This document shows, piece after piece, positions 3,337 through 51,992 of a stretch of DNA of 64,000 nt; positions within the stretch are counted from its first letter, which is position 1, and the number at the start of each line of letters is the position of its first letter. A program made the position numbers and the translations under genes. The notes beneath the pieces are model-generated. The model ran no database searches. It saw only the letters and a program-made list of their open reading frames with translations, and was not told where the DNA came from. Source of the DNA: Escherichia coli (GTDB lineage Bacteria > Pseudomonadota > Gammaproteobacteria > Enterobacterales > Enterobacteriaceae); the NCBI RefSeq assembly GCF_003991155.1, contig NZ_CP031295.1; one strand, given 5' to 3'.

Positions 3337-5964
3337 GTGAATAACCCACTTGAGGCCGTCACTCAGGCGGTTAACTCCCTCGTCACAGCACTGAAACTGC
3401 CTGACGAATCCGCAAAGGCCAATGAAGTTCTGGGCGAAATGAGCTTCCCGCAGTTCAGCCGTCTGCTGCCGTACCGTGATTACAACCAGGAATCCGGTCT
3501 GTTCATGAATGACACCACGATGGGCTTTATGCTGGAAGCCATCCCCATCAATGGGGCGAATGAGTCCATTGTGGAGGCCCTCGATCACATGCTGCGCACC
3601 AAACTGCCGCGCGGTATTCCGTTGTGTATCCATCTGATGTCCAGTCAGCTGGTTGGTGACAGGATTGAATACGGGCTGCGTGAGTTCTCCTGGTCAGGTG
3701 AACAGGCTGAACGGTTTAACGCCATTACCCGGGCCTATTATATGAAAGCGGCAGCGACACAGTTTCCGCTGCCGGAGGGGATGAATCTGCCCCTGACCCT
3801 GCGCCATTACCGGGTGTTTATCTCGTACTGTTCTCCTTCGAAGAAAAAAAGCCGGGCCGACATTCTGGAAATGGAAAACCTGGTGAAAATCATCCGGGCG
3901 TCGTTACAGGGGGCCAGTATCACCACACAGACGGTGGATGCACAGGCCTTTATCGATATTGTCGGGGAGATGATTAACCATAACCCGGACTCCCTGTATC
4001 CGAAAAGACGTCAGCTGGACCCGTATTCTGATCTGAATTATCAGTGTGTGGAGGACAGTTTTGATCTGAAAGTCCGGGCTGATTACCTGACGCTGGGCCT
4101 GCGTGAGAACGGCAGGAACAGCACGGCCCGCATCCTGAATTTCCATCTGGCCCGTAACCCGGAAATCGCCTTCCTGTGGAACATGGCCGACAACTACAGC
4201 AACCTGCTGAACCCGGAACTGTCCATCTCCTGTCCGTTCATCCTGACGCTGACTCTGGTGGTGGAAGACCAGGTGAAAACCCACAGCGAAGCCAACCTGA
4301 AGTACATGGACCTGGAGAAAAAGTCGAAGACCTCCTATGCCAAATGGTTTCCGTCCGTGGAGAAAGAGGCGAAGGAGTGGGGGGAACTGCGTCAGCGGCT
4401 GGGCTCCGGTCAGTCCTCTGTCGTGTCCTACTTCCTCAACATCACAGCATTCTGCAAGGACAATAATGAAACGGCGCTGGAAGTGGAGCAGGACATCCTG
4501 AACAGCTTCCGTAAAAACGGTTTTGAGCTGATTTCACCGCGCTTTAACCACATGCGCAATTTCCTGACCTGCCTGCCCTTTATGGCCGGGAAAGGGCTGT
4601 TTAAACAGTTGAAAGAGGCCGGAGTGGTTCAGCGCGCAGAGAGCTTTAATGTTGCCAACCTGATGCCGTTAGTGGCGGATAACCCCCTGACACCGGCAGG
4701 TCTGCTGGCACCCACCTACCGTAACCAGCTGGCGTTTATCGATATTTTCTTCCGGGGGATGAATAACACCAACTACAACATGGCGGTCTGTGGCACCTCC
4801 GGGGCCGGTAAAACCGGGCTGATACAGCCACTTATCCGCAGCGTGCTGGACTCCGGAGGCTTTGCCGTGGTGTTTGACATGGGGGATGGATACAAGTCCC
4901 TGTGTGAGAACATGGGCGGGGTGTATCTGGACGGTGAAACCCTGCGTTTTAACCCGTTTGCGAACATCACCGATATTGACCAGTCAGCGGAGCGTGTCCG
5001 TGACCAGTTGTCGGTGATGGCCAGCCCCAACGGTAACCTGGATGAAGTGCATGAAGGTCTGCTGCTGCAGGCGGTCAGGGCCTCCTGGCTGGCTAAAAAG
5101 AACAGGGCGCGCATCGATGATGTGGTGGATTTCCTGAAAAACGCCCGTGATAACGACCAGTATGTCGAGTCACCGACCATCCGCAGCCGTCTGGATGAAA
5201 TGATTGTCCTGCTGGATCAATATACCGCCGGCGGCACTTACGGCCGGTATTTTAACTCTGATGAGCCGTCCCTGCGGGATGATGCGAAAATGGTGGTGCT
5301 GGAGCTGGGCGGACTGGAAGACCGTCCGTCACTGCTGGTTGCGGTGATGTTCAGCCTCATTATTTACATCGAGAACAGGATGTACCGCACGCCGCGTAAC
5401 CTCAAAAAACTGAACGTCATTGATGAGGGATGGCGTCTGCTGGACTTCAAAAATCACAAGGTCGGTGAGTTTATTGAGAAAGGTTACCGTACCGCCCGCC
5501 GTCATACCGGTGCCTATATCACCATCACACAGAACATCGTCGACTTTGACTCTGACAAGGCCTCCAGTGCTGCCCGCGCGGCATGGGGTAACTCCTCCTA
5601 CAAAATTATCCTCAAACAGAGTGCGAAGGAGTTCGCGAAATACAACCAGCTGTATCCGGACCAGTTCCTGCCACTGCAGCGTGACATGATTGGTAAGTTC
5701 GGTGCGGCCAAAGATCAGTGGTTCAGTTCCTTCCTGCTGCAGGTGGAAAACCATTCCTCCTGGCACCGTCTGTTTGTGGACCCGTTAAGCCGCGCCATGT
5801 ACAGCTCTGACGGCCCGGATTTTGAGTTTGTGCAGCAGAAGCGTAAAGAGGGGCTGAGTATTCATGAGGCGGTATGGCAGCTGGCGTGGAAGAAGTCAGG
5901 GCCGGAGATGGCTTCGCTGGAAGCCTGGCTGGAAGAACATGAGAAATACAGGAGTGTGGCATGA
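3337..5964 (+). CDS. traC: TraC, VirB4-like T4SS ATPase (GTG start)
   Basis: 875-aa ORF, Walker A-like GTSGAGKT, size and position as in F. Confidence 0.9.
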   Translation: MNNPLEAVTQAVNSLVTALKLPDESAKANEVLGEMSFPQFSRLLPYRDYNQESGLFMNDTTMGFMLEAIPINGANESIVEALDHMLRTKLPRGIPLCIHLMSSQLVGDRIEYGLREFSWSGEQAERFNAITRAYYMKAAATQFPLPEGMNLPLTLRHYRVFISYCSPSKKKSRADILEMENLVKIIRASLQGASITTQTVDAQAFIDIVGEMINHNPDSLYPKRRQLDPYSDLNYQCVEDSFDLKVRADYLTLGLRENGRNSTARILNFHLARNPEIAFLWNMADNYSNLLNPELSISCPFILTLTLVVEDQVKTHSEANLKYMDLEKKSKTSYAKWFPSVEKEAKEWGELRQRLGSGQSSVVSYFLNITAFCKDNNETALEVEQDILNSFRKNGFELISPRFNHMRNFLTCLPFMAGKGLFKQLKEAGVVQRAESFNVANLMPLVADNPLTPAGLLAPTYRNQLAFIDIFFRGMNNTNYNMAVCGTSGAGKTGLIQPLIRSVLDSGGFAVVFDMGDGYKSLCENMGGVYLDGETLRFNPFANITDIDQSAERVRDQLSVMASPNGNLDEVHEGLLLQAVRASWLAKKNRARIDDVVDFLKNARDNDQYVESPTIRSRLDEMIVLLDQYTAGGTYGRYFNSDEPSLRDDAKMVVLELGGLEDRPSLLVAVMFSLIIYIENRMYRTPRNLKKLNVIDEGWRLLDFKNHKVGEFIEKGYRTARRHTGAYITITQNIVDFDSDKASSAARAAWGNSSYKIILKQSAKEFAKYNQLYPDQFLPLQRDMIGKFGAAKDQWFSSFLLQVENHSSWHRLFVDPLSRAMYSSDGPDFEFVQQKRKEGLSIHEAVWQLAWKKSGPEMASLEAWLEEHEKYRSVA

Positions 5965-36722: not shown

Positions 36723-37542
36723 GGCACTGTTGCAAAGTTAGCGATGAGGCAGCCTTTTGTCTTATTCAAAGGCCTTACATTTCAAAAACTCTGCTTACCA
36801 GGCGCATTTCGCCCAGGGGATCACCATAATAAAATGCTGAGGCCTGGCCTTTGCGTAGTGCACGCATCACCTCAATACCTTTGATGGTGGCGTAAGCCGT
36901 CTTCATGGATTTAAATCCCAGCGTGGCGCCGATTATCCGTTTCAGTTTGCCATGATCGCATTCAATCACGTTGTTCCGGTACTTAATCTGTCGGTGTTCA
37001 ACGTCAGACGGGCACCGGCCTTCGCGTTTGAGCAGAGCAAGCGCGCGACCATAGGCGGGCGCTTTATCCGTGTTGATGAATCGCGGGATCTGCCACTTCT
37101 TCACGTTGTTGAGGATTTTACCCAGAAACCGGTATGCAGCTTTGCTGTTACGACGGGAGGAGAGATAAAAATCGACAGTGCGGCCCCGGCTGTCGACGGC
37201 CCGGTACAGATACGCCCAGCGGCCATTGACCTTCACGTAGGTTTCATCCATGTGCCACGGGCAAAGATCGGAAGGGTTACGCCAGTACCAGCGCAGCCGT
37301 TTTTCCATTTCAGGCGCATAACGCTGAACCCAGCGGTAAATCGTGGAGTGATCGACATTCACTCCGCGTTCAGCCAGCATCTCCTGCAGCTCACGGTAAC
37401 TGATGCCGTATTTGCAGTACCAGCGTACGGCCCACAGAATGATGTCACGCTGAAAATGCCGGCCTTTGAATGGGTTCATGTGCAGCTCCATCAGCAAAAG
37501 GGGATGATAAGTTTATCACCACCGACTATTTGCAACAGTGCC
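36723..37542 (-). mobile_element. tnp26: IS26 copy 1 (820 bp; tnp26 36775-37479, minus strand)
   Basis: 14-bp terminal inverted repeats GGCACTGTTGCAAA at both ends; intact 234-aa transposase from MNPFKGRHF. Confidence 0.9.
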
Positions 37543-44320: not shown

Positions 44321-45140
44321 GGCACTGTTGCAAAGTTAGCGATGAGGCAGCCTTTTGTCTTATTCAAAGGCCTTACATTTCAAAAACTCTGCTTACCAGG
44401 CGCATTTCGCCCAGGGGATCACCATAATAAAATGCTGAGGCCTGGCCTTTTGCGTAGTGCACGCATCACCTCAATACCTTTGATGGTGGCGTAAGCCGTC
44501 TTCATGGATTTAAATCCCAGCGTGGCGCCGATTATCCGTTTCAGTTTGCCATGATCGCATTCAATCACGTTGTTCCGGTACTTAATCTGTCGGTGTTCAA
44601 CGTCAGACGGCACACGGCCTTCGCGTTTGAGCAGAGCAAGCGCGCGACCATAGGCGGGCGCTTTATCCGTGTTGATGAATCGCGGGATCTGCCACTTCTT
44701 CACGTTGTTGAGGATTTTACCCAGAAACCGGTATGCAGCTTTGCTGTTACGACGGGAGGAGAGATAAAATCGACAGTGCGGCCCCGGCTGTCGACGGCCC
44801 GGTACAGATACGCCCAGCGGCCATTGACCTTCACGTAGGTTTCATCCATGTGCCACGGGCAAAGATCGGAAGGGTTACGCCAGTACCAGCGCAGCCGTTT
44901 TTCCATTTCAGGCGCATAACGCTGAACCCAGCGGTAAATCGTGGAGTGATCGACATTCACTCCGCGTTCAGCCAGCATCTCCTGCAGCTCACGGTAACTG
45001 ATGCCGTATTTGCAGTACCAGCGTACGGCCCACAGAATGATGTCACGCTGAAAATGCCGGCCTTTGAATGGGTTCATGTGCAGCTCCATCAGCAAAAGGG
45101 GATGATAAGTTTATCACCACCGACTATTTGCAACAGTGCC
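44321..45140 (-). mobile_element. tnp26: IS26 copy 2 with frameshifted transposase
   Basis: Terminal IRs present; tnp26 split into ORFs 44419-44703 and 44700-45095 by single-base indels relative to copies 1 and 3. Confidence 0.8.
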
Positions 45141-45479
45141 CGCCCGCCTATGGTCGCGCGCTTGCTCTGCTCAAACGCGAAGGCCGGTGCCCGTCTGACG
45201 TTGAACACCGACAGATTAAGTACCGGAACAACGTGATTGAATGCGATCATGGCAAACTGAAACGGATAATCGGCGCCACGCTGGGATTTAAATCCATGAA
45301 GACGGCTTACGCCACCATCAAAGGTATTGAGGTGATGCGTGCACTACGCAAAGGCCAGGCCTCAGCATTTTATTATGGTGATCCCCTGGGCGAAATGCGC
45401 CTGGTAAGCAGAGTTTTTGAAATGTAAGGCCTTTGAATAAGACAAAAGGCTGCCTCATCGCTAACTTTGCAACAGTGCC
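45141..45479 (+). mobile_element. Partial IS26 (3' 339 bp with IRR), inverted relative to copy 2
   Basis: tnp26 C-terminal coding sequence plus terminal IR TTTGCAACAGTGCC at 45466-45479. Confidence 0.75.
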
Positions 45480-45616: not shown

Positions 45617-46432
45617 TTAGAAAAACTCATCGAGCATCAAATGAAACTGCAATTTATTCATATCAGGATTATCAATACCATATTTTTGAAAAAGCCGTTT
45701 CTGTAATGAAGGAGAAAACTCACCGAGGCAGTTCCATAGGATGGCAAGATCCTGGTATCGGTCTGCGATTCCGACTCGTCCAACATCAATACAACCTATT
45801 AATTTCCCCTCGTCAAAAATAAGGTTATCAAGTGAGAAATCACCATGAGTGACGACTGAATCCGGTGAGAATGGCAAAAGCTTATGCATTTCTTTCCAGA
45901 CTTGTTCAACAGGCCAGCCATTACGCTCGTCATCAAAATCACTCGCATCAACCAAACCGTTATTCATTCGTGATTGCGCCTGAGCGAGACGAAATACGCG
46001 ATCGCTGTTAAAAGGACAATTACAAACAGGAATCGAATGCAACCGGCGCAGGAACACTGCCAGCGCATCAACAATATTTTCACCTGAATCAGGATATTCT
46101 TCTAATACCTGGAATGCTGTTTTCCCGGGGATCGCAGTGGTGAGTAACCATGCATCATCAGGAGTACGGATAAAATGCTTGATGGTCGGAAGAGGCATAA
46201 ATTCCGTCAGCCAGTTTAGTCTGACCATCTCATCTGTAACATCATTGGCAACGCTACCTTTGCCATGTTTCAGAAACAACTCTGGCGCATCGGGCTTCCC
46301 ATACAATCGATAGATTGTCGCACCTGATTGCCCGACATTATCGCGAGCCCATTTATACCCATATAAATCAGCATCCATGTTGGAATTTAATCGCGGCCTC
46401 GAGCAAGACGTTTCCCGTTGAATATGGCTCAT
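45617..46432 (-). CDS. aph(3')-Ia: APH(3')-Ia aminoglycoside phosphotransferase (kanamycin/neomycin resistance)
   Basis: 271 aa MSHIQRETSCSRPRLNSNMDADLYGYKWARDNVGQSG...; flanked by IS26 as in Tn4352-like structures. Confidence 0.9.
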   Translation of the reverse strand: MSHIQRETSCSRPRLNSNMDADLYGYKWARDNVGQSGATIYRLYGKPDAPELFLKHGKGSVANDVTDEMVRLNWLTEFMPLPTIKHFIRTPDDAWLLTTAIPGKTAFQVLEEYPDSGENIVDALAVFLRRLHSIPVCNCPFNSDRVFRLAQAQSRMNNGLVDASDFDDERNGWPVEQVWKEMHKLLPFSPDSVVTHGDFSLDNLIFDEGKLIGCIDVGRVGIADRYQDLAILWNCLGEFSPSLQKRLFQKYGIDNPDMNKLQFHLMLDEFF

Positions 46433-46519: not shown

Positions 46520-47339
46520 GGCACTGTTGCAAATAGTCGGTGGTGATAAACTTATCATCCCCTTTTGCTGATGGAGCTGCACATGAACCCATTCAAAGGC
46601 CGGCATTTTCAGCGTGACATCATTCTGTGGGCCGTACGCTGGTACTGCAAATACGGCATCAGTTACCGTGAGCTGCAGGAGATGCTGGCTGAACGCGGAG
46701 TGAATGTCGATCACTCCACGATTTACCGCTGGGTTCAGCGTTATGCGCCTGAAATGGAAAAACGGCTGCGCTGGTACTGGCGTAACCCTTCCGATCTTTG
46801 CCCGTGGCACATGGATGAAACCTACGTGAAGGTCAATGGCCGCTGGGCGTATCTGTACCGGGCCGTCGACAGCCGGGGCCGCACTGTCGATTTTTATATC
46901 TCCTCCCGTCGTAACAGCAAAGCTGCATACCGGTTTCTGGGTAAAATCCTCAACAACGTGAAGAAGTGGCAGATCCCGCGATTCATCAACACGGATAAAG
47001 CGCCCGCCTATGGTCGCGCGCTTGCTCTGCTCAAACGCGAAGGCCGGTGCCCGTCTGACGTTGAACACCGACAGATTAAGTACCGGAACAACGTGATTGA
47101 ATGCGATCATGGCAAACTGAAACGGATAATCGGCGCCACGCTGGGATTTAAATCCATGAAGACGGCTTACGCCACCATCAAAGGTATTGAGGTGATGCGT
47201 GCACTACGCAAAGGCCAGGCCTCAGCATTTTATTATGGTGATCCCCTGGGCGAAATGCGCCTGGTAAGCAGAGTTTTTGAAATGTAAGGCCTTTGAATAA
47301 GACAAAAGGCTGCCTCATCGCTAACTTTGCAACAGTGCC
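46520..47339 (+). mobile_element. tnp26: IS26 copy 3 (tnp26 46583-47287)
   Basis: 14-bp IRs at both ends, intact transposase. Confidence 0.9.
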
Positions 47340-47660
47340 ACGAACAGCACCTTCAGATAATGGTATCCAGTCAATTTGTGCCTTCATAATACCAGTCATC
47401 GCTCCATGTCGTTCCGGAGAGCACCACACCATTCCTTCAGACCAGCGAACCAGTTCACGCAACTCCATAACTTTTGGATGTGATTCCGGTGCATCATCAG
47501 GAAGTGGAAGGCCAGATGGATTAAAAATGCGGACGTCTGCGCCCATTGCAGTTAACAAACGGCCTGCTTCCTCTGTCGCCAGTCGACTGTATGAGCGCTC
47601 ACGAACTGAGCCATAAAGCATTAGAATACGAGGTGGGTGAGATATTGCCGGTATCCCCAT
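47340..47660 (-). pseudogene. arsH: arsH (NADPH-dependent FMN reductase) 5' fragment truncated by IS26
   Basis: N-terminal ~107 codons with ...[13 protein letters not shown]...[24 protein letters not shown] then IS26 boundary. Confidence 0.6.
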
Positions 47661-47820
47661 TTTTTGCTCAGTTATTGCAGTATCAGATAAATCAGGAACT
47701 ATATTATTTAACCTATTAATTTTTATGATTTTCTCTATATATTCTTGGCTTAATTAGGTGTGCTTCGCACGGGTAGATACAGCATTCGTCAATCATGACA
47801 GTTATGAGTTTTCCGGTTAC

Positions 47821-48144
47821 TTACCCATTTTTGCCAGCGGGTTCCGCAACATCTGTTTTACTGTTTACACAGCACTCTTCACGTAAGAATTCGATGATAG
47901 CTTCCAGTATTTCATATTGAGAGACGCACATGAGCGTTCGACTCTCCCGGTTTTGTGTGACGAGTCCTACTGATACCAGGGCTGAAATATGATGACTTAA
48001 CGTTGATGAAGGAATGCCAAGCTGCTTTTGCAATTCACCTACAGGTAAACCTTGTTCTCCAGCTTTTACAAGATGTTTGAATATGAACAAACGGGTCGGG
48101 TGACCCAGTTCTTTTAGAGCTTTAGCTACTTCTTCCAGTTGCAT
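47821..48144 (-). CDS. arsR: ArsR/SmtB-family metalloregulator
   Basis: 107 aa with HTH (PTRLFIFKHL...LPVGELQKQLGIPSSTLSHHISAL) and C-terminal cysteine pair. Confidence 0.65.
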   Translation of the reverse strand: MQLEEVAKALKELGHPTRLFIFKHLVKAGEQGLPVGELQKQLGIPSSTLSHHISALVSVGLVTQNRESRTLMCVSQYEILEAIIEFLREECCVNSKTDVAEPAGKNG

Positions 48145-48248
48145 GTGACAACCCTCTGCCTGATGATATTTCGATAATACCAGAAATATCTTGACTATAA
48201 TTATATTTCGATTATTCTAGAATAATAGATTCTGTCAAGAGGTTTAGT

Positions 48249-49328
48249 ATGAATAGTTGGATTCCTATGTTGCAAGATGCCGCAGAGATGTTTGTTTTTC
48301 TGGCTGTTGAGCTTTCATTGCTGTTTATTGTCATTAGTGCCGGTGTGAGCCTGATAAGGCAAAAAGTCCCGGATCATAAAATTCAGCAGATGATGGGGGC
48401 GAGAAAAGGTAAGGGGTATCTGTTGGCCTCGTTGCTGGGAGCCGTTACCCCTTTCTGTAGTTGCTCAACAATTCCAATGTTGCGAGGATTGTTGTCTGCG
48501 AAAGCGGGGTTTGGTCCGACACTCACTTTTTTGTTTGTTTCACCGTTGCTTAATCCCATTATCGTGGGACTAATGTGGGTTACCTTTGGCTGGAAAGTAA
48601 CTTTGCTGTATGCGATCATCGCTGCCGGTGTTTCAGTTCTTTCCAGTATTATACTGGATTATTTAGGGTTTGAACGTCATATTGTTGAATACAAAAATTC
48701 AGTATCAGGTAGTTGCGCCACCAAGTGCGGTGATTCTGAAGCTTCGGTAAAAACGAATTGCTGTACTTCATCAGCAAAAACCATAATTAACTTAAAGACA
48801 GTAAAGAAAGAGCAAAATATATCGGCGTGTTGTCCCTCAATTCTATCAGAAAAATCTTCTGAAAGTTGTTGCAGCAGCGAGAGTCAGGGCAACAGAAATC
48901 TCACAATGAATGCCACCTCTGGTCTAATAAAATTAGCAATGAAAGATGCCTTACAACAGTTTAAGGATGTTCTGCCTTATCTTTTGTTAGCTATATTAAT
49001 AGGTTCATTTATTTATGGTTTTATCCCTTCAGAGTGGATTGCAGCTCATGCCGGTGCAGATAATCCATTAGCCATACCGCTCAGTGCTGTTGTTGGTATT
49101 CCGCTGTATATTCGTGCTGAGGCCGTAATACCACTTGCATCAGTTCTGATGACTAAAGGTATGGGCCTCGGAGCTTTAATGGCCTTGATAATCGGTAGTG
49201 CTGGAGCGAGTCTGACAGAAGTAATATTGCTTAAATCAATGTTCAGAATGCCCATGATAATCGCATTTCTGACGGTTATCTTAGGTATGGCAATCCTTAT
49301 GGGATATTTAACGCAATTTTTGTTTTAA
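48249..49328 (+). CDS. arsP: ArsP-like permease (putative organoarsenical efflux)
   Basis: 359-aa polytopic protein with TPFCSCS motif; divergent from arsR. Confidence 0.6.
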   Translation: MNSWIPMLQDAAEMFVFLAVELSLLFIVISAGVSLIRQKVPDHKIQQMMGARKGKGYLLASLLGAVTPFCSCSTIPMLRGLLSAKAGFGPTLTFLFVSPLLNPIIVGLMWVTFGWKVTLLYAIIAAGVSVLSSIILDYLGFERHIVEYKNSVSGSCATKCGDSEASVKTNCCTSSAKTIINLKTVKKEQNISACCPSILSEKSSESCCSSESQGNRNLTMNATSGLIKLAMKDALQQFKDVLPYLLLAILIGSFIYGFIPSEWIAAHAGADNPLAIPLSAVVGIPLYIRAEAVIPLASVLMTKGMGLGALMALIIGSAGASLTEVILLKSMFRMPMIIAFLTVILGMAILMGYLTQFLF

Positions 49329-49620
49329 TCCTTATGAGAAGGGATTTTTGCGTCAATATGAAAATCCCTTCAGTCTTACGGCGCGGTTCTAACGGTGTAG
49401 CCCTTTTATTGTTATCCCTAAACCACCTCCTAGGGAGGTGGTGATTGATCCTGTAAGGCTATAGCCTGAAGAATGCCCATGTCGGAATATCTCTGCTTAC
49501 TGACCACAAGTAAAAGCAACTGTTCTACCAGCAGCCTGCAAAAAACATATAAGCTGATCTGAAAGGAATACTTCACAATGAATATTATTGTGTTTGTAAC
49601 CTGCTGTTATCGCGATGAAA

Positions 49621-50238
49621 TTACCGTTCAGTTTTTTCGGTTGACGCGGACTGTTCCTGCATGGTTTTCATCTTTAGCTTCTGTTGTTCCCTTACTGCCA
49701 GCCAGCGTCTGGCATTCAGCGCATCGCATTCTGATACCTGACCTGCTGGTAGTCCATCCAGTCCATAACGAGGGATACCTGCGACAGCAGTACGCTGCAG
49801 ATATACCTGTCGGGTGGTGATGCAGGATATTGCACAGGACCATTCATCCAGTGTCAGTTCTGTCTCAGGGTGTTCTGTCAGGAATGCGGCAAAATCATTG
49901 GTTATGCCAATTTTCAGTGGAAGAAATCCTCCGCCTTCTGCGCGAAGATGGGGAAACAGAGACTTCACTTTTTCCACGCAATCGTGAGTAAATTCATGAG
50001 TCCAATGAGGCTGGCGTGGAAAACGGCGTCTTTTCTTTTTTTTCTTACAGGCAGGAGCATCAGGGGTATGAGTATCGACGGCAGGCGAACTGATCCCCTC
50101 AGAGACTGATTCTTCCATCTTTTCTGTCTCTGAACGTGCGATAACACCTGTTTTTTCAGATAAGGAAGGGGGTAAAAGAGTGCGACGTTTTTTCACCATA
50201 ATGATGGGTGTTTTCTTTTCTTCCTGATATTTCCCCAT
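49621..50238 (-). CDS. FinO/ProQ-domain RNA-binding protein (second FinO-family gene in window)
   Basis: Lys/Arg-rich N-terminus followed by FP..PLKIGI...YL...A.RYGLDG pattern shared with FinO/ProQ domain. Confidence 0.55.
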   Translation of the reverse strand: MGKYQEEKKTPIIMVKKRRTLLPPSLSEKTGVIARSETEKMEESVSEGISSPAVDTHTPDAPACKKKKKRRRFPRQPHWTHEFTHDCVEKVKSLFPHLRAEGGGFLPLKIGITNDFAAFLTEHPETELTLDEWSCAISCITTRQVYLQRTAVAGIPRYGLDGLPAGQVSECDALNARRWLAVREQQKLKMKTMQEQSASTEKTER

Positions 50239-50525
50239 AAAAACCTCTACGATGTGTTCTTATATAATAATATATATCATATTTTCACGATTAACATAAT
50301 ATCTTCGTTAAGAAAACAACAGAGCAAAATTTGTTTTTTTTTGACAGGCATGAAATGAGCCAGCATAATTATATTAATTATTATCCCAAATGAGTTTTTG
50401 TATTTGCTCATTCGGGATGGTTGGATATTTTAAGTTATATCTACTGTATCATTCTCAGGTAATCGTTCCATTAAATCAGAAACTACGGGCTGTAACCAGT
50501 CAGTGACTTCACTCACATACTGATG

Positions 50526-51992
50526 TCATTCGGGATGCCTGGAGGCCAGATCCATCACTCGTGTTAACCCGGACGGACGATCAATGCCCAATTTAGTTAA
50601 AATATTCGAGATATAATTATGAGCATCAAGTTCAACTCTGATATCCCTTGCTGCTTCGATTATTTCTAAATATTCGCCACCCAATCCGTCCAGTGGGACA
50701 TTTGTAATAAGATAATGAATGTATTGTTCAGGCTTAACCCCATTTGGGAGATTAAATTGTTTTACTTTTCCTTCCGCTGCCGCTTTTAACTCATAAGTTC
50801 GTGATTCTGTGCCGGTGAAAACTTTATCACGAGCAGTTTTCTTTTCATTTTCTGTGGAATATTTATCGCCATCAAGAATATAAAGTTTACCAGATAGATT
50901 GTCACCACGAATAAGGGTACTGGCAAGTAGAGTGAATGCGTTTGAAGCTGCGCCAAATTTAAATATTTTTACATATTTGCTGGCCTTAAGTGAAGAACAT
51001 ATTTTATTTATTATGGCAACAGCTAAGTCATCTTCTACATATATTTCAATAGGCGTCGTTGATTCACCTGTTAATCTGTTTATAGCATCAGGTTTTGTTT
51101 CTTCAAATGAATAACTACGGCCTTGAATGTTTACGACGTGTCTTATATTTATCTTGTCTGATAAAGTGGTTATCATTTCTCTATGGGTAGTAAAGATGAT
51201 TTGTTTGTTTTTATCTTTGGCATGAGATGATATGACTTCTATTAACTTTTTCAATGCTTCGTCATGCAACAATAAATCTAATTCATCAATTAATATTAAG
51301 GCGTTCTTGTCCGCTTTCAATATTGTTTCCAGAATTAAAAATATCTTTTGCTCTCCTGCGCTCATACTCAATGATGAGTAGGCCAGTCCCCCTGACTCAA
51401 CTCCAATCAATATTTTTCCATTGGGTTGTTGATGCTGATTGAAACTTGTGTATGGTTTATTAAGTATATAGGAGGCGTAATGAAGAATGTTTGTTATTAA
51501 ATCATTACTGACACTGCTGGTTTCATACTGAATATTATTCTTTTTTTCTGATTCTATTATAGGAACACATTTATCAATGCCAAGATAGTAAACTTCTCTT
51601 AAAGGACGACGAGCATAAATCTGAATCCATCGTGAGCCTCGAATATCTGCTTTTCCATAATTTTTCAATTCATTTTCAATCATTACCCCATCTTTACGAT
51701 AAGTTAAATTTACAATGAAGTCACTGCCGTTCCATTCAGCATGTGGGCTGCGTGGAAAAAAATGCATTAACCGATGGTCTTCACCGGGGAAACCTTCTTC
51801 AGGCATGTATATGCTTGCTATAGCATGGAGTATTGTTGATTTTCCGCTTCCATTTGGACCTAAAATTGCGGTTAACGCATGAGGTTTAAAAATAATCTCG
51901 TTTAATCCATTTATACATTTTAGTTTGTTAATTTTAATGGAGTTCAAGACTTGACCAGTAATGGTTTTTTTATTTTTTTCTGCCATTTTCAA
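50526..51992 (-). CDS. ABC-type ATPase fused to TOPRIM/DUF4435-like domain (OLD-family or fused PARIS-like candidate)
   Basis: Walker A GPNGSGKST, signature-like LSMSAGEQK, Walker B LILIDELDLLLHDE, H-loop TTH; C-terminal VEDD ... LYILDGDK consistent with TOPRIM E and DxD. Confidence 0.6.
   Translation of the reverse strand: MKMAEKNKKTITGQVLNSIKINKLKCINGLNEIIFKPHALTAILGPNGSGKSTILHAIASIYMPEEGFPGEDHRLMHFFPRSPHAEWNGSDFIVNLTYRKDGVMIENELKNYGKADIRGSRWIQIYARRPLREVYYLGIDKCVPIIESEKKNNIQYETSSVSNDLITNILHYASYILNKPYTSFNQHQQPNGKILIGVESGGLAYSSLSMSAGEQKIFLILETILKADKNALILIDELDLLLHDEALKKLIEVISSHAKDKNKQIIFTTHREMITTLSDKINIRHVVNIQGRSYSFEETKPDAINRLTGESTTPIEIYVEDDLAVAIINKICSSLKASKYVKIFKFGAASNAFTLLASTLIRGDNLSGKLYILDGDKYSTENEKKTARDKVFTGTESRTYELKAAAEGKVKQFNLPNGVKPEQYIHYLITNVPLDGLGGEYLEIIEAARDIRVELDAHNYISNILTKLGIDRPSGLTRVMDLASRHPE

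Follow-up and report, generated by a model that had tools for sequence, protein, structure and literature searches.

An IS26-truncated arsH, arsR2 and an ArsP-family permease gene in Escherichia coli as the probable surviving end of a plasmid arsenical-detoxification cluster

In a 64,000-nucleotide stretch of Escherichia coli DNA (RefSeq assembly GCF_003991155.1, contig NZ_CP031295.1; this whole stretch is referred to as the window), positions 47340-49328 carry a truncated arsH, an arsR gene (arsR2) and the gene of an ArsP-like permease, immediately next to a copy of the insertion sequence IS26. What were these genes once part of, and what could the genes that are left still do? An earlier note, written from the sequence alone, had called the segment an arsenic-related remnant, and all three genes were found where it had placed them. 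We consider it likely that the segment represents the surviving end of an arsenical-detoxification cluster, carried as accessory DNA by IncFIB/FIC-type and by pESI-like plasmids, the core of which would be a sensor-exporter module formed by arsR2 and the permease. Efflux of organoarsenicals is a plausible role for this module; it is favoured by the cysteine pattern of the sensor and by the gene neighbours in enteric bacteria, and is not implied by the permease motif.

Results

IS26 removed one end of an older arsenic cluster

The elements needed to describe the left edge and the genes of the segment are as follows:

46520-47339, plus strand: IS26, 820 bp, with 14-bp terminal inverted repeats ggcactgttgcaaa and tttgcaacagtgcc
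47340-47720, minus strand: truncated arsH; the ATG at 47660 is the annotated-type start and 47720 the ancestral start position
47821-48144, minus strand: arsR2, encoding an ArsR/SmtB repressor of 107 aa with Cys73, Cys91 and Cys92
48249-49328, plus strand: gene of a PF03773 (TC 2.A.119) ArsP-family permease of 359 aa

The transposase of this IS26 copy belongs to the IS6 family (NF033587, 274 bits), and the break point in arsH, position 47340, is the first base past the element, which leaves a fragment of 107 aa counting from 47660. Since the 8-mers on the two sides of IS26 differ (CATCAGAG and ACGAACAG) and a target-site duplication is absent, the junction, which borders a resistance region, is the product of a deletion or recombination mediated by IS26 and not of a simple insertion. 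The arsH fragment covers model positions 23-124 of 219 in TIGR02690 and scored 183 bits against a cut-off of 292; this low score is due to the loss of half of the protein, so the fragment is a truncated gene and not a member of a different family, and the intact arsH allele of pESI reached 400.6 bits with the same model. The N-terminal part of the FMN_red domain (PF03358) was also found in the fragment (78 bits, profile positions 1-98 of 152). The arsH frame continues into IS26, giving rise to a 160-aa fusion open reading frame (ORF; 47178-47660), and alignment with a Salmonella genomic island revealed that the ancestral start, 20 codons upstream at 47720, has changed from ATG to ATT in this lineage. 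The window keeps 127 of the 236 island-type ArsH codons and contains no second arsH fragment.

Other copies or pieces of IS26 in the window are located at 36723-37542, 44321-45140 and 45141-45479, the last being a 339-bp partial element that adjoins the full copy near aph(3')-Ia. This gene (NF051474, 650 bits; 45617-46432, minus strand) is flanked on both sides by IS26 sequences; the resistance region to which it belongs was built by IS26 and ends on the right at the arsH junction.

The genes that were lost can be read from fuller copies. The pESI-like Salmonella Infantis plasmid CP148781 is 96.4% identical to the window over 47340-51000 and agrees with it in gene order and in the palindrome downstream of the permease gene, but its cluster is more complete: the permease gene diverges from arsR2, which is followed by a full-length arsH (216 aa), a SigZ-like extracytoplasmic function (ECF) sigma factor gene, arsD and arsA, whereas the window has IS26 in place of everything past arsH codon 107. 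The pESI permease allele (345 aa) is 88% identical to that of the window (359 aa). In the Salmonella genomic island, arsRDABC is followed by arsH-arsR2 and the divergent permease gene (377 aa). The arsR2-permease pair lies directly after arsRBC in E. fergusonii, after arsRDABC in Citrobacter and inside a larger ars island in a Proteus plasmid, and ars operons accompany it in three Aeromonas species and in Buttiauxella; the operon types flanking the pair across these fuller contexts include arsRBC, arsRDABC and acr3. The statement of the earlier note that IS26 had cut arsH and left the original operon incomplete is thus confirmed by the fragment end at 47340 and by the genes present in the fuller copies. 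IS26 would have deleted the 3' 46% of arsH and all that lay beyond it (sigma-arsD-arsA in pESI). An intact ArsH would have oxidised trivalent organoarsenicals; with its end and the rest of the cluster lost to IS26, only sensing and efflux can remain.

Some features of these fuller copies deserve mention in their own right. In the pESI-like record (L003), arsA (4159-5915) is split into two overlapping ORFs of 494 and 91 aa, which suggests a 3' frameshift or a sequencing error. The SigZ-like ECF sigma gene recurs beside ArsR2 and PF03773 permeases (L003 6374-6931, L011 3357-3899, L016 4710-5258) and about 10 Vibrio loci also have it next to ArsR2; the pESI protein, encoded between arsH and arsD, has a Cys-rich C-terminal tail, CQIQVDDTSHVCCHKKMN. 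A pairing of ArsA with PF03773 permeases in Aeromonas was considered and rejected, given that an Acr3 gene is present in that operon.

The segment is common. A search of PLSDB with a 2.3-kb stretch of the ars segment matched 726 plasmids, 380 of them with at least 80% query coverage and at least 145 at 99% identity or more; most were E. coli and Salmonella plasmids, IncFIB/FIC replicons included. A junction probe made of 45 nt of IS26 and 155 nt of arsH revealed the same IS26/arsH junction in at least 87 records, pSMS35_130 (NC_010488) among them. In RefSeq the two intact genes bear the names 'metalloregulator ArsR/SmtB family transcription factor' and 'permease', so that the segment is already known both as sequence and as annotation: it is inherited, well-sampled, ordinary DNA. 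The idea that it was an unusual cargo of the antibiotic resistance region must be abandoned on both counts, in view of these numbers and because the segment is older plasmid accessory DNA whose edge was removed by the IS26-bounded resistance region.

ArsR2 resembles an As(III) repressor but has a different cysteine set

ArsR2 matched the HTH_20 (55 bits) and HTH_5 profiles and scored 63.2 bits with NF033788, above the cut-off of 55, which places it in the ArsR/SmtB family. Its best solved relative in the PDB was AfArsR of Acidithiobacillus ferrooxidans (6J05, E value 1.8e-11). Cys91-Cys92 of ArsR2 align exactly with Cys95-Cys96 of AfArsR, but the position of AfArsR Cys102 is occupied by Asp98 and no later cysteine follows, and hence ArsR2 does not have the three-cysteine site of the AfArsR type. 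Conversely, Cys73 of ArsR2, located in the beta-hairpin, has no counterpart in AfArsR. Cys73, Cys91 and Cys92 were invariant in all 60 homologues recovered (see below), and around one third of the ArsR2 clade adds a Cys97 that restores an AfArsR-like C-terminal triad.

A two-cysteine, AfArsR-like repressor has been described in Shewanella putrefaciens: SpArsR ('ArsR4') is selective for methylarsenite [MAs(III)] and not for As(III), and induces arsP (PMC11868830; PMC13236881; PMC9213503). ArsR2 shares with SpArsR, which we compared by its description only, the vicinal cysteine pair and the missing third C-terminal cysteine. Repressors of this kind are said to control arsP and arsH, the gene set present at the window locus. 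A search with a Shewanella ArsR2 homologue returned solely generically named proteins.

By analogy, a thiol-reactive trivalent arsenical would bind Cys91-Cys92 and cause ArsR2 to leave the DNA. AfArsR needs a third C-terminal cysteine to coordinate As(III); as ArsR2 lacks it, the likeliest ligands would be methylarsenite or an aromatic As(III) compound. The invariant Cys73 could nevertheless supply a third ligand, perhaps across the dimer, and the set formed by Cys73 and Cys91-Cys92 may match none of the site types in the ArsR papers cited here.

The divergent control region contains two putative operators

The space between the two intact genes was found to have the following organization:

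48145-48248, no strand assigned: control region, 104 bp between arsR2 and the permease gene; two blocks are invariant in an alignment across six genera
48168-48187, no strand assigned: dyad 1, ATTTCGATAATACCAGAAAT, a perfect ATTTC-N10-GAAAT of 20 bp
48205-48224, no strand assigned: dyad 2, ATTTCGATTATTCTAGAATA, 20 bp, with two mismatches in the right half (window and pESI lineage)
48191-48196 and 48213-48218, plus strand: promoter-like hexamers of the permease gene, -35 TTGACT and -10 TATTCT, from a consensus match
48238-48233 and 48216-48211, minus strand: promoter-like hexamers of arsR2, -35 TTGACA and -10 AATAAT, from a consensus match

The promoter-like hexamers of both genes overlap dyad 2. 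With up to one mismatch tolerated, 75 of the 77 species loci had the dyad in the 350 nt preceding the permease gene, most often in two copies; the background frequency is 0.024 per 360 nt. The layout, seen as a phylogenetic footprint, is that of a classical autoregulated divergent repressor and its target, with the dyads as putative operators: ArsR2 dimers would occupy both of them, and both promoters would be repressed. arsH lies downstream of arsR2 and has no dyad of its own upstream, so it was probably co-transcribed with arsR2.

Dyad 2 has diverged in the window and in pESI, where it reads GAATAAT in the place in which loci L004, L008, L011 and L012 keep GAAATAT, so that one half-site is weakened. 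The same change creates a new perfect 16-bp palindrome, ATTATTCTAGAATAAT, and might allow leaky expression from the permease promoter.

The permease belongs to the ArsP family, and its motif does not define the substrate

The relevant parts of the permease are these:

48447-48467, plus strand: TPFCSCS motif, residues 67-73, including Cys70-Ser-Cys72
48669-48953, plus strand: hydrophilic, Cys-rich central loop, residues ~141-235, with C156, C160, C171-172, C194-195 and C207-208

The description of the protein as an ArsP-like permease with a TPFCSCS motif proved right: it matched PF03773 (ArsP_1) with 181.5 bits (cut-off 32.3) over residues 10-357 and profile positions 4-294 of 294, that is, over practically the whole protein. 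Hydropathy and an AlphaFold2 (AF2) model [mean predicted local distance difference test (pLDDT) 82, predicted template modelling score (pTM) 0.77] revealed two membrane halves, residues 1-140 and 222-359, joined by the hydrophilic loop, as in the ArsP family, which is described as having two membrane halves and a hydrophilic loop of variable size and is included in the TOG superfamily by the TCDB authors (PMC7176098). In the model, TPFC coincides with an interruption between helices 55-66 and 71-83, and GIPLY-IRAE forms a matching break in the second half. The loop contains eight cysteines, including three CC pairs, has a pLDDT below 50 and is modelled as disordered from 145 to 221. Its length varies among alleles of 337, 345, 359 and 377 aa, and its ratio of nonsynonymous to synonymous substitution rates (dN/dS), ~0.3, is relaxed in comparison with the membrane parts.

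The CSC triplet was invariant in all 44 aligned homologues, including paralogues of 30% identity. ArsP homologues encoded in ars operons all have C(S/T)C, preceded in cluster 2 by tPF (PMC4435449), and the TPFCSCS of the permease fits this second cluster. CSC is also the most conserved feature common to the SO_0444 Cu/Zn and SaoE families (bioRxiv 10.1101/2022.07.06.499078). The motif thus marks the family and thiophilic substrates and not organoarsenicals in particular. With the SO_0444 model (NF033936) the permease scored 112 bits against a cut-off of 300, and the window protein and seven clade homologues together ranged from 101 to 130 bits (84 for a ~30% paralogue); with SaoE (NF040736) it scored 88 bits against a cut-off of 325 (clade range 86-111). 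The permease clade linked to ArsR2 shares the superfamily and CSC with SO_0444 and SaoE but falls below both cut-offs and is part of neither named family.

ArsP of Campylobacter jejuni (TC 2.A.119.1.1), which exports methylarsenite and trivalent roxarsone, has the same PF03773 domain, a C(S/T)C membrane segment and an adjoining arsR, the likeness being one of family, motif and gene context. The window permease differs in being divergent from its regulator and in having a ~95-aa Cys-rich loop with three CC pairs; C. jejuni ArsP, with ~315 aa, is too short to accommodate such a loop. A tblastn search for a Campylobacter match to the permease among plasmids yielded none, a PDB sequence search with the permease gave no match and a Foldseek search with its model gave nothing significant. 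ArsB and DASS-type structures are just 7-11% identical to it in sequence, and their resemblance in fold is to be taken as a lead only. In the mechanism that we propose, the permease would then export the arsenical by way of the invariant Cys70-Ser-Cys72 at the broken transmembrane helix.

arsR2 and the permease gene form a conserved pair

To see how far the association of the two genes extends, one genome per gammaproteobacterial species was scanned, and 80 permease loci were returned. At 60 of them an ArsR2 homologue (at least 50% identity) was encoded, in most cases in divergent orientation ~400 bp before the permease gene; ArsA, B, C, D, H or Acr3 occurred within 10 kb at just six. Unbiased clustering of the flanking ORFs at these loci yielded no other widely conserved neighbour. 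Given the pairing at 60 of the 80 loci and the lack of another conserved partner, arsR2 and the permease gene are a self-contained module. This pair mostly stands alone in marine Gammaproteobacteria and has been inserted repeatedly into ars islands in Aeromonas and the Enterobacterales. Long-term dN/dS values were 0.02-0.05 for arsR2 and 0.03-0.09 for the membrane parts of the permease, indicating strong purifying selection.

Two further neighbours were noticed at some loci. A gene for a eukaryotic-type glutathione synthase (PF03917/PF03199) adjoins the pair or a paralogue in five loci (L016 3039-4478, L013, L027, L036 and L046), from Aeromonas, Shewanella and Psychromonas, which hints at a link with thiol chemistry. 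A second PF03773 paralogue, ~30% identical, is paired with a small Thioredoxin_3 protein in L011 (1913-3159) and L016 (1675-2959); two different ArsP-family permeases thus coexist in the same arsenic islands.

The palindrome beyond the permease gene lies outside the module

Two inverted repeats were identified past the permease stop codon:

49338-49371, plus strand: hairpin after the permease stop codon, with 11-nt arms and a 12-nt loop (-16.8 kcal/mol, z -1.3)
49422-49442, no strand assigned: palindrome ACCACCTCC-TAG-GGAGGTGGT, 21 nt, arms 49422-49430 and 49434-49442 and loop TAG; unique in the window

The palindrome had been noted before at 49422-49441 with a 'ta' loop; it does exist, but these limits were one base off, since it ends at 49442 and its loop is TAG. 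In the 64 kb we found ~11 distinct perfect hairpins with a stem of at least 9 bp, against ~2.65 expected from Markov-1 random sequences, and the palindrome (fold z ~ -2) is one of several such hairpins, individually unremarkable.

Its position, 94 nt past the permease stop codon, and its perfect 9-bp GC-rich stem could suggest that it terminates transcription of the ars module or serves in its regulation, but this is very unlikely. Chromosomal and island copies cease to be homologous to the window at 49329-49351, just past the permease stop codon (at 49351 for the Salmonella island), so the palindrome lies beyond the region common to these copies; it was found in the IncF and pESI loci (L001, L002, L003 and L093), and all chromosomal and island loci lack it. 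On neither strand does a T-run come after it: the letters past the palindrome are GATTGATC (plus strand) and TTAGGGAT (minus strand), without the U-tract expected of an intrinsic terminator, and the terminator scan did not report it. No Rfam match was obtained for 47300-50400, and it is a different hairpin, that at 49338-49371, which directly follows the stop codon and may act as a weak terminator where the module ends on the right. The palindrome was accordingly rejected as a part of the ars module, and it appears to be unrelated plasmid spacer before the ProQ/FinO-family gene.

That gene (PF04352, 47 bits; 49621-50238, minus strand) encodes a protein with a lysine/arginine run. Its counterpart in the pESI-like plasmid (L003 9497-10113) consists of two ORFs of 118 and 90 aa and is apparently frameshifted. 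Downstream of it, 50526-51992 (minus strand) encodes an AAA/ABC-type ATPase, for which the RefSeq product is longer (518 aa); it matched the PADLOC candidate defence family HEC-04 (E value 4e-42), with weaker matches to ATPase-Toprim, AriA, AbiLi and GajA, and it is possibly an anti-phage gene of the plasmid backbone.

Discussion

The analysis above favours a surviving sensor-exporter module at the end of an IS26-truncated arsenical-detoxification cluster, and phenotypic data from the literature bear on it. Isolates of S. Infantis with pESI-like plasmids that carry arsA, arsD, arsH and arsR2 and lack arsB and acr3 were found to be resistant to As(III) and to phenylarsine oxide (PAO); the authors remarked on the absence of arsB and acr3 and did not mention the permease (PMC9219668). 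Because this resistance occurs without either of these two genes, we infer that the adjacent permease is the obvious candidate for the membrane component.

Several observations weigh against the reading that we prefer. Most of the pairs have no ars neighbours, which are present at six of the 80 loci, and the ancestral substrate may not be arsenic. CSC is family-wide and occurs in Cu/Zn exporters, and the NCBIfam model nearest to the permease is that of SO_0444 Cu/Zn efflux. The invariant Cys73 means that a two-cysteine, MAs(III)-selective interpretation of ArsR2 may be wrong. Regulation may be leaky here, given the two mismatches in dyad 2, and the probable co-transcription of arsH and arsR2 is deduced solely from the absence of a second dyad.

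The first of these points lead to an alternative in which the pair would be a general exporter system for soft metals or thiol stress (Cu, Zn, Cd, Hg or another thiophilic toxicant) that has come to lie secondarily beside ars operons, 'arsenic-related' then being a fitting label for arsH only. The 74 species loci (Vibrio, Shewanella, Aliivibrio, Photobacterium, Pseudoalteromonas and others) without ArsA, B, C, D, H or Acr3 within 10 kb agree with this, as do the absence of any other conserved neighbour in the ORF clustering, the SO_0444 Cu/Zn efflux model as best NCBIfam match, the CSC common to the Cu/Zn and SaoE families and the eukaryotic-type glutathione synthase adjoining the pair in five loci. 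We nonetheless regard it as unlikely: the clade members all remain at 100-130 bits with the SO_0444 model (cut-off 300), the closest solved relative of the sensor is an As(III) repressor whose metalloid-binding CC pair is kept, at least five different ars contexts have acquired the pair independently, and resistance to As(III) and PAO is seen in pESI isolates that lack arsB and acr3. Methylated arsenicals are common in sea water, and the stand-alone marine copies are for this reason compatible with an arsenical substrate. That ArsR2 might instead sense redox changes or persulfides in the manner of BigR/YgaV, with a permease that moves a sulfur compound, is brought to mind by the next PDB matches, YgaV (3CUO, E value 3.8e-8) and BigR (3PQJ, E value 4.2e-7), by the alignment of the C-terminal cysteine of YgaV with ArsR2 Cys92, and by the TauE-type genes that neighbour the module both in pESI and in the Salmonella island. 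This idea we find most improbable, since AfArsR is the better match, the NCBIfam BigR model gave 37.8 bits against a cut-off of 155, and BigR-type sensors have a partner cysteine in the N-terminal helix, whereas that helix has none in ArsR2, in which C73, C91 and C92 are the sole cysteines.

A different kind of objection concerns this plasmid in particular, where the remnant could be an inert hitch-hiker kept between the IS26-bounded resistance region and the backbone or defence genes. The destroyed arsH, the loss of the remaining operon and the degenerate state of the proximal dyad in this lineage would all be expected in that case, and the identical junction in at least 87 plasmids can be explained by descent and not selection. 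On the other hand, neither arsR2 nor the permease gene is damaged, and at least 88-145 plasmids carry them in identical form; the promoters and dyad 1 are likewise undamaged, and long-term dN/dS is very low, even if it reflects the history before plasmid capture. We consider an inert remnant rather improbable and continue to favour the retention of an arsenical sensor-exporter module. In a bolder proposal, which we advance tentatively and see as possible rather than probable, arsR2 and the permease would belong to a clade of arsenical sensor-exporters that is self-contained, as yet uncharacterised, widespread among Vibrionaceae, Shewanellaceae, Aeromonas and enteric mobile elements, and set apart by the dual ATTTC-N10-GAAAT operator, by Cys73 together with Cys91-Cys92 (possibly acting across the dimer) and by a Cys-rich loop with CC pairs, and the permease might be behind the As(III) and PAO resistance of pESI.

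For the window itself the remnant matters little: it is a common inherited landmark of the place where the IS26-mediated assembly of a resistance region ate into an older arsenic cluster in IncF and pESI-type plasmids. Its wider relevance lies in annotation, as the permease beside arsR2 is passed over in the pESI literature considered here, which puzzles over As(III) and PAO resistance in the absence of arsB and acr3. If the proposed role is correct, poultry-associated plasmids would carry a working organoarsenical or arsenite exporter, which could be co-selected together with CTX-M and other resistance genes.

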